A stretch of 61,829 nucleotides of DNA from Candidatus Kaelpia aquatica. Its GTDB lineage: Bacteria; Omnitrophota; Gorgyraeia; Kaelpiales; Kaelpiaceae. Below the pieces are notes generated by a model that worked only from the letters and a program-made list of their open reading frames with translations, had not been told where the DNA came from and searched no databases. The stretch covers positions 1 through 61,829 of the forward strand of contig JAVCCU010000016.1 of the NCBI GenBank assembly GCA_030765335.1, read 5' to 3'. Every line of letters begins with the position of its first letter. Positions within the stretch are counted from its first letter, which is position 1. Both the position numbers and the translations under genes were made by a program. Positions 1 through 52,867 of this stretch are shown here, in pieces.

Positions 1-689
1 CCATCTAGGTCGATTCTAATCCACTGCTTAGGTAGAGTATGCCCTGAAGATCCTATCTGATCATATAATTCCCAGGCTGAATCAGGTACATGATAAGGTA
101 CTTCCAATATTATGTTTTTAGACATTCGCCCATCATCAACGTCTGTTGTGTCATTGCTCATATTAAACCCTGCTCTTTCAAACGCATTGGAGAAAACCAA
201 AAATTCTTCTAAGTGAATAAAAAAGTCTCTATTCTCTTGCCATGGAAATCCACCTGAGCCTTCTGCGGATATAAAATAAATACCTTTGCCATCCTCTGAA
301 GGAGCCAAAGCAGGAGTAATATGATTATAGCTATACCTACCAGTCTCAACAAAGTATTCATCTAGCAGCTGTATGACAATATACTTATAAAAAATAGAGC
401 TATCTCCGCTTGTTAATCTCTTCTCTCTCATCATTAATGGCCGATTAAGAGTCTGCTCCCATAGCTCCCTAATTTCTGCAACATGTGCAACCCAGGCACC
501 TTCAGGCCATCCCCCTGCTTCCTCAATTGCCCTCTCTATTTCAGATGCAGTAAGTAAAGTAAATCCACCTGTCTTTATCCTGCGCAAAGAAAAGCTATAG
601 TCAATTTGATCCAATATAGAAAAGTTATTTTGATTTATAAATAAAAATATTGCTAAAAATATCAAAATACAAAAATACTTTTTAAACAT
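1..689 (-). CDS. Exported hypothetical protein, 3' end runs off the window (at least 229 aa); possible kinase-like fold
   Basis: Hand translation from ATG at 689 (SD GAGGTG upstream) is open to base 1: MFKKYFCILIFLAIFLFINQNN...FSLRRIK...DDGRMSKNII...WIRIDLDG. Absent from the ORF track because there is no stop codon in the window. Confidence 0.85.
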   Translation of the reverse strand, partial: MFKKYFCILIFLAIFLFINQNNFSILDQIDYSFSLRRIKTGGFTLLTASEIERAIEEAGGWPEGAWVAHVAEIRELWEQTLNRPLMMREKRLTSGDSSIFYKYIVIQLLDEYFVETGRYSYNHITPALAPSEDGKGIYFISAEGSGGFPWQENRDFFIHLEEFLVFSNAFERAGFNMSNDTTDVDDGRMSKNIILEVPYHVPDSAWELYDQIGSSGHTLPKQWIRIDLD

Positions 690-795
690 TATTTACACCT
701 CACTCTACTTTATTTATAACACAAATTAAAAGAGATACAAATTTTAGCAAATTGGAAAATAAAATAATTTCAAAAACAGTACGCTAAAGAACAAT

Positions 796-3375
796 CTATT
801 GAGAAGTTCTTTCTATAGAAATAATTTTGACTCCGGGATAGAAAGATGCTAAATCAGACCAAATAACATCTAAGGCTTCTGTTGAAGCTATAATTCTTAA
901 AAAATGTTGAAACGAATCATAATCTCCATACTCATCTGTTAAATATCTCTGATTCTGTATAAAATTAAGTGAATTATTATTCATTTGTGCATATAACAAA
1001 TAAAGAAGTACATCTTCATAATTTTCAACAATCCTGAAACCTTCTTCATTTTCAATACTTCGAAGGTTTAGGAGCATACTGTCAAATATACCTTGAGTTT
1101 GAATATCGCCAGGCAAAGTCAACTCAGCTATCTCCCTATCTATTGTTTCTATTAGAGAACTGATACCCGCTTCCGTCTCACTATCAGAGCCCAATTCACT
1201 TAGACGCGTTTCCAAATCCTCTTTAGTTATTTTTAGCTGAATTATTTTTCTCTGAGTAGATCTACCTCTTACTTCTGATTCATAAAGAAGATCTCTTCTT
1301 ACAGAATCTATAATTCCCGCACCTTCTAATCGATCAATAGTATTTCTAGGGTAGAAAGCTAGAGAAGAAACATCCTCGTCAATTCTATGCATAAACTCCC
1401 GTAACCCCGTAGCAGTTAACCCGCCGTATCTTTCCATCAACTCACTAGAAAGTTCTCCTAAACTGCCCCGGACACCTACTGTTTGAGAGTTGAAATATCG
1501 TTTAAAGTTTGAAAAATCACTCAAAATAGTCATGATATTTCTCATGGGGATCAACTTCGGAGCGTAATCGCCAGCATAGTCATATTGTGAAGTTATATCC
1601 AGTGTAATCGGAAAAACCTGGGATATAAAATCCATATTTACAGCATGGTATATTGCTCCAAAATGACGTAACAACCTTGCTGTCATCGCCAGGTTATCTC
1701 TTAGAAAACCGGCATCAGCTATTTGGATTGAACCATTATCTGTAAGATTAGTAAGCATATTCTCAAGACATGCTGCTGCACCCACATCCAAGCTGAATCT
1801 ACCTTCATATCCCGAATGTAAAATACCCTCAATATACCTGCTGTGATCAATTTGACTTAAATTTTCTATCGGCCTTAATCTTTCAACAAATTTAATCCGC
1901 TGGAAAAATTTCTTGCCTAACTTTTGCAATAAAGCAATGTCCTGCGTCTGAATAGCAAGTTTTATCTCCTCAAGGCTATGGCCTTCAATCACTTCATCTT
2001 CTTTCATGTCAACATACATCCTTGCTTCAACTTCATAGACTATACCATCTCTAATCTCGATTATCTTGGTAGGTAAAGAGTTTAAAAGCAGGTTAGACCT
2101 AATCAGCAATGCCGGCTCTACACCTGCTAAGATTTCGGGATTTAAAGCATCGGCTTGTTTAATCTCTACTCTATCTCTATGCGCTGCTAAATGAGGTGAA
2201 TTTGACAAGTTCTCAACAACAGCCTGAGAATAATCAAGCAAAACATAGGTTATTCTTTCGTAATACGAAGTACCTTTCTCACCATCGAGCTCTTTCATCC
2301 TCGTCAAAAATTCAGCTGCCGAACAACCATCCCCTGCCCCCCATTCTTGAACAACGATATTTTCCGGCAATTGACCAACGAAATCCATCTCTTCTAATTT
2401 GCCATAAAAATCTTCTGCACTCCTTCTTGCACATCCAGGCTCTAAAGTCATCTGCTTATCAATAACACCAAATGCATTGGCACCAAAAGCCCCATAGTAT
2501 AATGTATTCATTAAATTTAAAAAGCTTCCTTCCTGATCTAATGATGAAAAATCACCTACATATTGATAGTCTGAAACACCAGAGCTTGCTGCATTAATCT
2601 CTGATTCATTTTCTAATTTGACCTCAAATGGAATGTCTTCACCGTGACGCTGTAATCTAATTGTGCCACTACCTCCTATGCCTCTCATTTTAGAATCTAG
2701 TTCTTCAAAATATCTTTTATGTGCTAAGGCACAATCAAGACCCATGTTTTCTTCTCCGTCCATTAAAAGATTTTCCAGACTCGCCCTAAAAACTTTTGTA
2801 GTTTCATAAAAATAATCATAAGTTGGAACAAATACTAACCCATCTATATTAGAAATTTGAAGTGTTTTTATATCCATCTCTACATCTATGAACCCGCCGA
2901 TTCTAAAGGATAGCTTTTCTCCATCCGAAGATATGTTTCCAAGTTTCAAGAATCCAGAGGCTAAATTAGAACTTAAATATTCCACTAAAGGTTGATGAGA
3001 ATCATTTTTCCACTGCTCCGTAAGTCTTGCAATCTGATATAAACTTTCAATCAAAATATCAAATTCACCGGCAACTAATGATTTAGGCTGAATACTTTGA
3101 CCGCTCAAAGCGCCTCTATCCGCTCTTATTATCTCAACCGCAGGCAGCAAATTGCCAATCTTAATCTCAGCGCGATCTGCTCCAGTGCCTAAAATAGGAG
3201 ACAAAGTAGCCCCCTCTTCCAATTGTTTCCTGATATCATCACAAGAAATTCCTGCAGGCAAACTAACAACACGTCTTAAAGAAATATCGCTAACTGAGAA
3301 TATAAAAACATTTAGTAAATTGAAAGTTAAAATAACAAAGCAGATAGATATCCAACATGTTTTTTTCATTTCCAT
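796..3375 (-). CDS. Large exported protein with a central MidA/NDUFAF7-like class I SAM-dependent methyltransferase domain
   Basis: Likely start is ATG 3375 (MEMKK, after SD GAGGGTG) rather than 3420. Basic plus hydrophobic N-terminus; motifs QEWGAGDG, YVLLDYS, QADAL, RSNLLLNSLP, IADAGF. Confidence 0.7.
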   Translation of the reverse strand: MEMKKTCWISICFVILTFNLLNVFIFSVSDISLRRVVSLPAGISCDDIRKQLEEGATLSPILGTGADRAEIKIGNLLPAVEIIRADRGALSGQSIQPKSLVAGEFDILIESLYQIARLTEQWKNDSHQPLVEYLSSNLASGFLKLGNISSDGEKLSFRIGGFIDVEMDIKTLQISNIDGLVFVPTYDYFYETTKVFRASLENLLMDGEENMGLDCALAHKRYFEELDSKMRGIGGSGTIRLQRHGEDIPFEVKLENESEINAASSGVSDYQYVGDFSSLDQEGSFLNLMNTLYYGAFGANAFGVIDKQMTLEPGCARRSAEDFYGKLEEMDFVGQLPENIVVQEWGAGDGCSAAEFLTRMKELDGEKGTSYYERITYVLLDYSQAVVENLSNSPHLAAHRDRVEIKQADALNPEILAGVEPALLIRSNLLLNSLPTKIIEIRDGIVYEVEARMYVDMKEDEVIEGHSLEEIKLAIQTQDIALLQKLGKKFFQRIKFVERLRPIENLSQIDHSRYIEGILHSGYEGRFSLDVGAAACLENMLTNLTDNGSIQIADAGFLRDNLAMTARLLRHFGAIYHAVNMDFISQVFPITLDITSQYDYAGDYAPKLIPMRNIMTILSDFSNFKRYFNSQTVGVRGSLGELSSELMERYGGLTATGLREFMHRIDEDVSSLAFYPRNTIDRLEGAGIIDSVRRDLLYESEVRGRSTQRKIIQLKITKEDLETRLSELGSDSETEAGISSLIETIDREIAELTLPGDIQTQGIFDSMLLNLRSIENEEGFRIVENYEDVLLYLLYAQMNNNSLNFIQNQRYLTDEYGDYDSFQHFLRIIASTEALDVIWSDLASFYPGVKIISIERTSQ

Positions 3376-51527: not shown

Positions 51528-52867
51528 CTTCTACCTCTGATACGCCCTTTTCTCATAAAACCTTCATACTGCCTCATAAGAAGCTGCGACTCAAGCTGCC
51601 TCTCTGTGTCTAATAATACACCTACGATAATAAGTATACCCGTACCTCCAAAGAAACTAGCCACTAAGAAAGGTATGTGCAGAATGGTGGATATAATCGA
51701 GGGTAATACTGCAATAATTGCAAGAAATACAGCTCCGGGCAAGATAATTCTAGTCATAATTTTATCTAAATATTCTGAAGTATTATTACCAGGCCTTACT
51801 CCAGGAATAAAACCGCCATGCTTTTTCATGTTCTCTGCAACATCTTTAGGATTAAAGACAAGGGCTGTATAAAAATAACTGAAGAATATAATAAAACCGC
51901 TATAAAGAACATAGTAAAGTATGCCTTGCTGGCTAAATAGTGAGACTATTTTAGCTACAGCCGGATTATTAATGAAACCTCCTATAGTAGCCGGGAACAT
52001 CAATACAGACTGCGCAAAGATAATAGGGATAACTCCAGCCTGATTTATCCTCAAAGGAATAAAGGTGCTCTGCCCGCCATATACACGCCTGCCTATAACA
52101 CGCCTTGCATATTGAACTGGTATTTTCCGCTGACCCTGAGTTATAAGAACCACTCCTACAACCACAAGAACAAGCATCGCAGCCATAATAACCAAAGTGA
52201 AAGGCTGAATCTGACCTCCAGTAGGAGAGAATGGATCCAGAAGAGAGTAAAGCTGTATCATAGCAGAAGGCAACCTCGATATTATACCAGCTGTTATTAT
52301 AAGTGAAATACCATTGCCGATACCGAACTCTGTTATCTGTTCTCCTAGCCAAACTATAAACATAGTGCCTGTAACGAGAGTAAGAACAGCAGTAAACCTA
52401 AAGCTCCAACCAGGATTAAATACTATTTGATAACCCTGGAATGATTGAGGATTTTCCAGCCAGAGGCTTATAAAAAATGCCTGGAATAAAGTAATTATAA
52501 CCGTTAAGTACCTTGTATATTGATTGATCTTTTGCCTGCCGTTATCCTGATGAGCAACTCTCTCTAAGGCCGGAATAACAGGAGTAAGAACCTGTAATAT
52601 AATAGATGCAGAGATATAAGGCATGATACCTAAAGCAAAGATAGTCAACCTTTGTATGGCGCCACCACTAAACATATTTATCATTCCAAATAGAGTTCCC
52701 CCTGGTGTATCTGCAAGATTTTTAAAGAACTCAGATAAAGCCTGGCCATTAATACCTGGTGTAGGTATGTAAGAACCTATTCTATATACAGCGATAAGCG
52801 CTAAAGTTATTAGAATCTTACGCCGTAAATCCTTAATTTTAAAAGTGTTAGCTAATCCTCTAAACAT
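51524..52867 (-). CDS. secY: Preprotein translocase SecY
   Basis: FALGIMPYISASI, GIGNGISLII, AGVIPIIFA, GGFIPGVRPG. Confidence 0.98.
   Translation of the reverse strand: MFRGLANTFKIKDLRRKILITLALIAVYRIGSYIPTPGINGQALSEFFKNLADTPGGTLFGMINMFSGGAIQRLTIFALGIMPYISASIILQVLTPVIPALERVAHQDNGRQKINQYTRYLTVIITLFQAFFISLWLENPQSFQGYQIVFNPGWSFRFTAVLTLVTGTMFIVWLGEQITEFGIGNGISLIITAGIISRLPSAMIQLYSLLDPFSPTGGQIQPFTLVIMAAMLVLVVVGVVLITQGQRKIPVQYARRVIGRRVYGGQSTFIPLRINQAGVIPIIFAQSVLMFPATIGGFINNPAVAKIVSLFSQQGILYYVLYSGFIIFFSYFYTALVFNPKDVAENMKKHGGFIPGVRPGNNTSEYLDKIMTRIILPGAVFLAIIAVLPSIISTILHIPFLVASFFGGTGILIIVGVLLDTERQLESQLLMRQYEGFMRKGRIRGRR

Follow-up and report, generated by a model that had tools for sequence, protein, structure and literature searches.

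An Arg-Arg box behind signal-peptide-like leaders in the Kaelpia/Saelkia family of Omnitrophota: a possible sorting tag on accessory proteins

In apicomplexan and oomycete parasites, which are eukaryotes, the signal peptide of exported proteins is followed by motifs such as PEXEL (RxLxE/Q/D), TEXEL (RRLxx) and RxLR. In Chlamydia, a host-dependent bacterium of a related superphylum, glycogen enzymes and phosphoglucomutase have been shown experimentally to be exported by type III secretion. In Bacteroidetes, the substrates of signal peptidase I follow the Q-rule, in which position +1 is Gln that is cyclised to pyroglutamate (PMC5837995, PMC10653852). The role of basic residues in Sec avoidance has also been reviewed (PMC9360617). 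The Omnitrophota themselves are known for giant multi-enzyme proteins, nearly half of which have been read as membrane-anchored with cytoplasmic domains (bioRxiv 10.64898/2026.06.07.730766). Here, a short Arg-Arg (RR) motif is described that was first seen at the start of a 61,829-nucleotide stretch of DNA (the window) from Candidatus Kaelpia aquatica (Omnitrophota; contig JAVCCU010000016.1 of assembly GCA_030765335.1). Two adjacent genes in this window encode proteins A and B, and an earlier note, made from the sequence alone, had proposed that the tetrapeptide SLRR, which both proteins carry just behind the N-terminus, is an export tag on unrelated enzymes. The analysis favors, tentatively and at somewhat short of an even chance, the reading that SLRR of A and B represents a lineage-specific tag by which Sec-exported accessory proteins are sorted.

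The two genes are real; each protein begins with a basic n-region and a hydrophobic core that are followed by SLRR where the earlier note had placed it (Table 1). The assembly comprises 1.34 Mb in 46 contigs with 37% G+C, and 1,304 open reading frames were called genome-wide (93% coding). A set of 262 signal-peptide-like proteins was defined as those with one N-terminal hydrophobic segment and no other, using a simple hydrophobicity rule. The proteome contains 15 copies of SLRR, where 7.3 are expected from composition, and six of these lie 10–20 residues behind a signal-peptide-like N-terminus. At residues 25–48 it is present in 6 of the 262 signal-peptide-like proteins and in 1 of 755 others (Fisher p 0.0015). 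When residues 21–80 were shuffled, the mean count was 0.16, and none of 2000 shuffles reached 6. The enrichment test that the earlier note had called for, run against shuffled and non-signal controls, was thus positive.

SLRR proved to be one of the less common variants of a broader box, [A/L]-R-R-[V/I/L/T]-[K/R]. In the same shuffling test [AL]RR was observed 39 times against 3.2, and RR 60 times against 17.8, while a tetrapeptide screen returned ARRV, ARRI, RRVK, DARR, FARR and QARR as the words most enriched behind signal peptides. An RR within 27 residues after the hydrophobic core is carried by 59 of the 262 proteins, where 16.6 are expected from the genome-wide rate. The mature parts of these 59 form 51 BLASTP families. 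A conserved tag is present right behind the signal peptide, on catalytic cargoes that are unrelated to one another. A control window placed 40 residues further into the same 262 proteins has RR in eight. The pairs KK, KR and RK are instead depleted after the core (29, 11 and 14 against 45, 30 and 21 expected), as expected of exported proteins. The position profile of the box is S(-6), A(-3), A or L(-1), R, R, V/I/T/L and K/R. A relaxed tag lacking the second Arg, R-x-[VIT]-[KR], was tried and rejected, as it was enriched in none of nine genomes.

Removal of LpxK, CdaA, a pseudopilin, a histidine kinase, a lipoprotein and one further false positive left 53 curated tagged proteins, which amount to 21,337 residues (5.1% of the proteome) and about 50 unrelated families. 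These can be divided into two classes. Class I makes up about two thirds and has RR immediately behind an AxA-type site; small residues are present at both -1 and -3 in 33 of the 53. In class II, which includes A and B, RR follows L, often as S-L or T-L, and lies 10–20 residues past the core. In the charge of the n-region (+2.0 vs +1.8), core and c-region, the tagged leaders are like the other leaders of this genome, which speaks for export combined with a tag. What differs is the early mature region: the first six residues from RR carry a charge of +2.3, compared with -0.3 in ordinary leaders, and the first 18 residues carry +1.4, compared with -0.6.

A DNA repeat as the cause of the motif was rejected, since all six Arg codons are used for RR across the tagged set and only one leader cassette, present in six genes, repeats at the DNA level. 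This cassette (Table 1) consists of about 55 nucleotides of promoter-like upstream DNA (AATTTG ... TATATGGCATACTTTATAAAGAGGG) and then the leader MVQNM..NLKTKGIILFIVG..FSCPADA-RR. The similarity ends directly after the RR codons, and the six cargoes are unrelated. The same MVQNM...PADA-RR leader is also found on at least four genes of a second genome of the genus (G002), and it looks like a movable expression-and-targeting cassette.

The Arg pair persists between relatives whose leaders have changed. In the B family, which forms six clusters among 5.8 billion proteins, leaders have diverged, and RR is kept in five of the six clusters at 42–77% identity (SLRR, SLRR, SCRR, ALRR and SLRR), the sixth reading CRLVR. 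In paralogues of A at 33–38% identity, RR is among the few invariant columns. The direct A orthologues of genome G006 (Saelkia) and genome G007 (a fourth genus) read IF-RR-IK and IC-RR-IK, so RR-IK is kept and SL is not. A GAPDH-like tagged family at 42–47% identity reads VC-RR-VQ, TC-RR-TK, VC-RR-VK and IF-RR-VH; four clusters of it exist, all with RR, and no relatives outside the Kaelpia/Saelkia family were found for leader comparison. The small residues at -3 and -1 also persist through substitutions between relatives (SYA, AQA, AFA). The two A orthologues carry in-frame stops (one TAA in G006; one TGA and one TAG in G007), and the hydrophobic leader of the G006 copy is degraded too. Both look like pseudogenes in which RR-IK is nonetheless readable.

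These comparisons refine what the earlier note had claimed. As a word, SLRR is enriched, but SL is not conserved in the orthologues of A and B, and the core of the tag reads instead as Arg-Arg, a hydrophobic residue and a basic residue (Lys or Arg), apparently set after a Sec-type signal peptide. The note had also pointed to a similar helix 10–12 residues further downstream (SEIERAIEEAG in A, DDIRKQLEEGA in B). Both stretches are present, but they are not statistically similar and are not kept in B orthologues; each is just the first helix of its domain and does not belong to the tag. The two outcomes named beforehand as counting against a tag were a lack of enrichment and a paralogous origin of A and B; as the motif is enriched and the two proteins are not paralogues, neither was found.

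The lineage range of the box is narrow. RR after a signal-like leader was counted in 14 of 51 proteins in G002 (3.2 expected), in 18 of 51 in G006 (2.8 expected) and in 6 of 33 in G007 (1.8 expected). Enrichment was not found on the eight largest contigs of G005 (genus g2), a sample that probably misses the small variable contigs where tagged genes sit in Ca. Kaelpia aquatica. There was also no enrichment in G013, G028, G010 and G016, which represent four other families of the class and whose few matches are pseudopilins and LemA. A search of 401 genomes of the phylum with the DNA pattern AxARR[VI]K made only the Kaelpia/Saelkia family prominent, with 9, 7, 7 and 3 matches compared with 0 in the built-in control, and in G009, which belongs to this family, all seven matches are in true leader context. 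Two genomes of other families with many matches, G332 and G197, were rejected as a second motif lineage because none of their matches is in signal-peptide context. Among the Omnitrophota families examined, the box was not found outside the Kaelpia/Saelkia family. Tagged genes are clustered in G007 too, where a gene downstream of the B orthologue (L003) has a leader and a box that reads ...NKNEG-L-RR-AKTT.

As the earlier note had supposed, the tag sits on different enzyme domains, which were listed by Pfam. Enzymes of sugar-phosphate and nucleotide-sugar metabolism include a class II fructose-bisphosphate aldolase fused to phosphofructokinase, GAPDH, 6-phosphogluconate dehydrogenase, phosphoglucomutase and UDP-glucose pyrophosphorylase. 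There are also a PEP-utiliser domain, S-adenosylmethionine (SAM) methyltransferases (among them B, whose MidA/NDUFAF7-type match is weak) and GNAT acetyltransferases. In addition, there are a histidine-kinase-type ATPase, an HD domain, PAS-GGDEF, HAD phosphatases, a uridine-kinase/PRK P-loop kinase, TPR proteins and one protein with four HTH_3 domains. The tagged proteins of G002, G006 and G007 give the same cargo list. Leaderless normal copies of GAPDH, PFK, PGM, PPDK, enolase and TPI are present in the genome, so the tagged enzymes are extra, divergent, N-terminally extended paralogues. BamA, Skp, secretins, pseudopilins and lipoproteins of the genome have ordinary leaders without RR. The tagged genes form co-directional arrays, and 58% of them lie within 3 kb of a contig end, compared with 21% of all genes. 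Several Pfam-less tagged proteins contain HExxH motifs (AHELGHN, AHEIGH, AHEMAH, LHEITH and LHECSH; Table 1) and may constitute an undescribed zincin-like family.

Proteins A and B both belong to class II. The window opens at the very start of contig C17, and its positions 1–127 are identical over 127 nucleotides to positions 51650–51776 of contig C16, whose end overlaps the start of C17; the contigs therefore join, which completes A to 301 residues. The basic start of A is followed by 14 hydrophobic residues, and 17 residues separate this core from RR. By sequence inspection, no good signal-peptidase site was found between the two. In B, the core has 20 hydrophobic residues and a plausible site, SVS|D, lies five residues before SLRR. 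Beyond the N-terminal motif A and B have no significant similarity (BLASTP E 0.8), and paralogy of the two was rejected on this ground; the earlier note had seen no similarity after about 60 residues.

Protein A has no Pfam match. It represents a lineage-restricted family for which a protein-kinase-like fold is possible. In the family alignment (A2), RR, D180, N190 and D203 are invariant. An AlphaFold2 model of a paralogue (predicted local distance difference test 72, predicted template modelling score 0.72) was compared with the Protein Data Bank (PDB) using Foldseek, and the top 50 matches were all kinases or APH, albeit weak (E 0.02–0.1, TM about 0.2). In this model the leader helix spans residues 3–22, RR lies in a low-confidence flexible linker and the fold begins at residue 45. 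Right after the box, A resembles the prepilin motif G|FTLxE; since this stretch follows the core and A paralogues read FPLLTAEE, the likeness is probably coincidence.

Protein B matches PF02636 (MidA/NDUFAF7-like) with an E value of 0.002 and 18.1 bits, which is below the cut-off of 23.3. Its orthologues P0003 and P0006 carry a precomputed PF02636 match, and the SAM motif GAGDG is present in B. A sequence search of the PDB found no relative. The nearest relative of B is from Candidatus Saelkia tenebricola of Ace Lake, and the N-terminus of the Ca. Saelkia orthologue reads MKRICWISVCC.... Elsewhere in the window, a ThyX-like open reading frame is about twice the usual length of a flavin-dependent thymidylate synthase and may be a tandem two-domain form.

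Table 1. Positions of the features discussed. Ranges without a contig name are window positions; C numbers are contigs, of Ca. Kaelpia aquatica unless another genome (G number) is given.
Feature	Position	Strand	Basis or remark
Protein A, first 229 of 301 residues	3..689	-	Open reading frame; gene continues from contig C17 end onto contig C16
A signal-peptide-like N-terminus, MFKK + YFCILIFLAIFLFI	630..689	-	Sequence; 12-residue hydrophobicity maximum 3.5
A Arg-Arg box S-L-R-R-I-K, residues 34-39	573..590	-	SLRR residues 34-37, nucleotides 579-590, TCT TTG CGC AGG
A prepilin-like stretch TGGFTLLTASE, residues 40-47	549-572		Right after the box
Protein B, 859 residues from MEMKK	796..3375	-	Open reading frame; signal peptide, RR box, about 65-residue linker, large module
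B signal-peptide-like N-terminus, MEMKK + CWISICFVILTFNLLNVFIF + SVS	3289..3375	-	Sequence
B Arg-Arg box S-L-R-R-V-V, residues 32-37	3265..3282	-	SLRR residues 32-35, nucleotides 3271-3282, TCT TTA AGA CGT
B methyltransferase core, residues 337-466, motif VVQEWGAGDG	1978..2367	-	Pfam Methyltransf_28 match; about 230 distant phmmer matches confined to core
B module, residues about 100-859	799..3078	-	Internal module of large multi-enzyme proteins in other Omnitrophota
ThyX-like open reading frame, 504 residues	3624-5138	-	RHRMS and SQRY motifs
tatA-tatC pair	C16:29749-30600	-	TatC at C16:29749-30360 (E 5e-53); TatA-like gene adjoining
Six-gene leader cassette	C3:8330-8620, C3:15940-16240, C4:3980-4280, C20:590-890, C38:2170-2460, C38:3810-4100		Similarity at DNA level
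HExxH-bearing tagged proteins	C38:1206-2264, C3:13804-14841, C44:5441-6421, C5:1698-3635, C38:139-1080		No Pfam match
A orthologue L008	G006:C30:16579-17400		In-frame stop
A orthologue L007	G007:C26:26-800		In-frame stops
Tagged gene L003	G007:C26:4434-5620		Downstream of B orthologue

The modules of A and B also occur inside much larger proteins. From residue 100 to its C-terminus, B is 36% identical to an internal module of a 23,636-residue open frame of genome G035. In an exhaustive phmmer search the full B module was found only in close orthologues, in the stand-alone protein P0013 and inside P0011 (5040 residues), P0012 (3503), P0014 (1857) and P0015 (4041). P0014 combines a B-like module with an A-like one (E 7e-11) in one signal-peptide protein, so the two neighbors in the window are fused elsewhere. 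P0011 carries a PFK-like module immediately ahead of its B module, and GAPDH-like, P-loop-kinase and SIS-type modules follow further on. The gene order in Ca. Saelkia (G006, contig C30) is PFK-like, B and A, which matches the PFK-like to B order of P0011; gene order in the Kaelpia/Saelkia family thus appears to mirror module order in the giant proteins. The genome of Ca. Kaelpia aquatica has no giant gene, the longest being 2,072 codons, and its 53 tagged proteins together come close in length to the G035 frame. The tagged genes look like a giant protein in pieces, with one leader per piece.

The leaders of the large proteins were also compared. In three other lineages the modules follow plain leaders, a point in favor of export: P0012, P0014 and P0015 start with one ordinary Sec signal peptide apiece (SYG|ID, VHA|LD and ALA|QG), lack RR and show no further hydrophobic segment. 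Signal-peptide targeting of these modules is accordingly a trait of the phylum, and RR alone is special to the Kaelpia/Saelkia family. A lone Arg is found in the P0013 leader (AS-RF-VVK). In P0011, the signal peptide is followed by a membrane segment whose strongly basic flank, SSNSMKKIVVEKKTNRIVRRFS, contains RR; this segment lies ahead of the enzyme modules. The idea that RR marks polyprotein junctions behind internal hydrophobic segments was rejected, as RR follows none of the 23 such segments in the G035 frame.

On the observed motif, its enrichment, arginine specificity, conservation, lineage range and cargo, the following account of a sorting tag can be built. Tagged proteins would be carried across the inner membrane by Sec, and signal peptidase I would remove the leader. 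RR, now exposed in a flexible stretch close to the new N-terminus, would then be read by a putative partner, which would sort, retain or assemble the tagged set apart from the housekeeping periplasmic and outer-membrane proteins that lack the box. In the Kaelpia/Saelkia family, the box may in this way stand in for the covalent linkage of the giant proteins. A bolder extension is that, after Sec export, the box routes the tagged glycolytic, pentose-phosphate, nucleotide-sugar, methyl- and acetyl-transfer, kinase-like, c-di-GMP and DNA-binding proteins beyond the periplasm to the cell surface or into a host or prey cell. The tagged set would then be a split, individually addressed equivalent of the giant proteins and a bacterial counterpart of the PEXEL/RxLR principle; this is considered doubtful. 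As an address label the Arg-Arg box is apparently undescribed: it was found neither in the Kaelpia paper nor in the two preprints on giant genes of the phylum, and full-text searches of the literature likewise gave no description.

Several observations weigh against a tag on exported proteins. Three positive charges open the mature chain, and Li, Summers, Andersson, von Heijne and others are said to have found that such charges impair Sec export in E. coli, arginine more than lysine. Among about 75 tagged proteins scanned in four genomes, none has a classic periplasmic or extracellular domain, and every recognizable domain is one that normally needs cytoplasmic ATP, NAD(P), SAM, acetyl-CoA, GTP, UTP or DNA. 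The enzyme modules of P0011, coming after a basic-flanked membrane segment, read as cytoplasmic. A reader of the box was not found: signal peptidase I is single-copy in all family genomes and TatC is not confined to the lineage. On the same copy number, which is as elsewhere, a dedicated extra signal peptidase I was rejected.

The strongest competitor of the sorting tag is that the Arg pair blocks export. Here, the pair, whose charge is permanent, would stop the chain at SecYEG, the leader would serve as a membrane tether and the enzymes would work on the cytoplasmic face. This explanation is judged less probable than the sorting tag. In its favor, all recognizable cargo domains are of cytoplasm type. 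Domains that use ATP, NAD, SAM, GTP or DNA fit a membrane-tethered cytoplasmic site about as well as they fit the effector idea. The charge is concentrated directly behind the hydrophobic segment, and the use of Arg rather than Lys fits the reportedly stronger block by arginine. True cytoplasm-facing anchors of the genome, LpxK and CdaA, also show a helix and then RR, and the P0011 modules follow a membrane segment with the flank SSNSMKKIVVEKKTNRIVRRFS. The 2026 preprint that reads nearly half of the Omnitrophota giants as membrane-anchored, with cytoplasmic domains, points the same way (bioRxiv 10.64898/2026.06.07.730766). With no greater likelihood than the block itself, the result would be a membrane-bound second set of sugar-phosphate and signalling enzymes, the split equivalent of the anchored giants.

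The build of the leaders, however, argues against an export block. The n-region is as basic as in exported proteins, so that an N-out orientation would break the positive-inside rule, and a hairpin would need more than the 18–20 uncharged residues available. Small residues at -3 and -1 and a Ser/Pro-rich c-region are kept under substitution, for which an anchor would have no need. In A, B and about 15 others, acidic residues lie between the helix and RR, and at 10–20 residues from the helix the pair would be too distant for a good topogenic signal. Finally, generic positive-inside flanks mix K and R, whereas K-containing pairs are depleted here.

An improbable alternative is that RR is a dibasic processing site, at which a dedicated protease (for example subtilisin/kexin-like or Arg-specific) trims a short pro-segment after export. 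If so, class I (AxA|RR) and class II would share a mature N-terminus, a corollary that is no more probable. The distance from core to RR is variable, residues on both sides are conserved (L/A before; V/I and then K/R after), and the pair lies in a flexible segment of the model, all of which would suit a protease. S8 and C39 peptidase domains have been reported in Omnitrophota giant proteins and were proposed to cut those proteins. In two thirds of cases, however, RR directly follows the signal-peptidase site, which leaves nothing to remove; such proteases usually accept KR, which is depleted; and a candidate protease was neither identified nor seen to co-vary with the motif.

Unorthodox Tat targeting, in which TatAC reads the twin arginines and the enzymes cross the membrane folded, is very improbable. 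The genome has an intact tatA-tatC pair (Table 1), the cargo consists of folded cofactor-binding enzymes, and TatC of the family scores 146–179 bits against PF00902, compared with 200–240 in most other Omnitrophota. A requirement for Arg-Arg rather than Lys-Lys is a hallmark of TatC recognition (PMC9360617). Nevertheless, RR is behind the core in all members and not before it, with no further hydrophobic stretch after it, the cores equal Sec cores in hydrophobicity, and none of 46 tagged proteins of the genome that were scanned has a TAT_signal Pfam match. A few ordinary-looking Tat leaders in the genome (e.g. C2_3376, MEQRRIFRL...) can account for the presence of the system. TatC co-occurred with the motif at first count (7 of 9 family genomes vs 0 of 4 others), but this link was dropped when 213 of the 401 Omnitrophota genomes surveyed proved to have TatC, motif-free lineages such as G028 among them.

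That the box has no function, being a chance resemblance or one inherited, duplicated leader, is scarcely credible: the MVQNM...PADA-RR leader, with its upstream DNA, is clearly a duplicated cassette in six genes, but most leaders are dissimilar outside RR and use all six Arg codons, no shuffle in 2000 reaches the observed counts, and RR is kept in orthologues at 42–47% identity while neighboring residues change.

The box has a fair chance of being the marker of a new sorting route. It offers a short, testable sequence handle on where the signal-peptide-bearing "cytoplasmic" enzyme modules of Omnitrophota work, including those of the giants. It labels about 5% of the proteome of a reduced genome, among them parallel sugar-phosphate enzymes beside the normal cytoplasmic copies. 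If the tagged proteins are exported, it would be unusual for a bacterium to send core-metabolic and signalling enzymes outside in this way, and the sorting signal would be new. Should they be retained, the box would be a natural case in which the export-block effect, in an arginine-specific form, serves to assemble membrane-tethered enzymes. Under either reading, the box runs counter to what textbooks state for the early mature region and would mislead standard predictors and annotation, and the motif is a practical marker for listing the accessory proteome in related genomes.

Among known systems, the Omnitrophota giant proteins share with the tagged set a repertoire of PGM, methyltransferase, GNAT, HATPase, HAD, HD and PPDK-like domains (bioRxiv 10.64898/2026.06.07.730766; 10.1101/2023.11.21.568195). 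A and B are true homologues of internal modules, N-terminal signal peptides are found in both, and the question of inside or outside is common to both. The difference is that here each module is its own gene with its own leader and RR, whereas the giants examined have no RR after hydrophobic segments, except for the P0011 flank. The Tat signal (RRxFLK; PF10518 / TIGR01409) is similar in that its Arg-Arg cannot be replaced by Lys and is followed by a hydrophobic residue and then Lys, in its folded cofactor cargo and in the presence of TatA and TatC. It differs in order, as the core comes before RR here, and the box has a Sec-like core, no profile matches and a range that does not follow TatC. 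The lipobox L-[AS]-[GA]-C is absent, there being no Cys in the c-region of A or B, and a minority of the tagged set has Cys at -1 of RR outside any lipobox context. Nor does A carry a type IV prepilin (class III) signal, in which G|FTL[IL]E precedes the N-terminal hydrophobic segment, as GGFTLLTASE follows both core and RR while the true pseudopilins of the genome have the normal order.

The Chlamydia enzymes resemble the tagged set in being ordinary carbohydrate enzymes sent out of the cell's own cytoplasm, and differ in using a type III route with no signal peptide. With PEXEL, TEXEL and RxLR the box shares a short Arg-containing motif, set from a few to about 20 residues past the signal peptide on many unrelated, fast-changing accessory proteins. 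Those motifs are eukaryotic and are read in the endoplasmic reticulum by aspartic proteases (plasmepsin V, ASP5), with host export demonstrated. The box has the consensus [A/L]RR[VILT][KR] and belongs to a bacterium, an omnitrophote with Sec, Tat and BamA, so it does not qualify as one of them and the likeness is one of analogy.

With the bacterial signal for Sec and signal peptidase I the tagged set shares a basic n-region, a hydrophobic core of 12–15 residues, a Ser/Pro-rich c-region and, in most members, small residues at -3 and -1, as in the equally built leaders of the housekeeping exported proteins. What sets the tagged set apart is the invariant Arg-Arg with Lys/Arg right after the site, which marks only a subset of signal-peptide proteins and departs from the Gram-negative rule of a neutral or acidic early mature region. 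The Q-rule differs in spanning most signal peptidase I substrates of a phylum and in its enzyme, glutaminyl cyclase, whereas the RR box is found on about a fifth of the signal-peptide-like proteins in one family, on a special class of cargo and up to 20 residues downstream. Like the Q-rule, the box is a lineage-restricted, strongly conserved choice of residue right after the signal-peptidase site that came to light through proteome-wide statistics.

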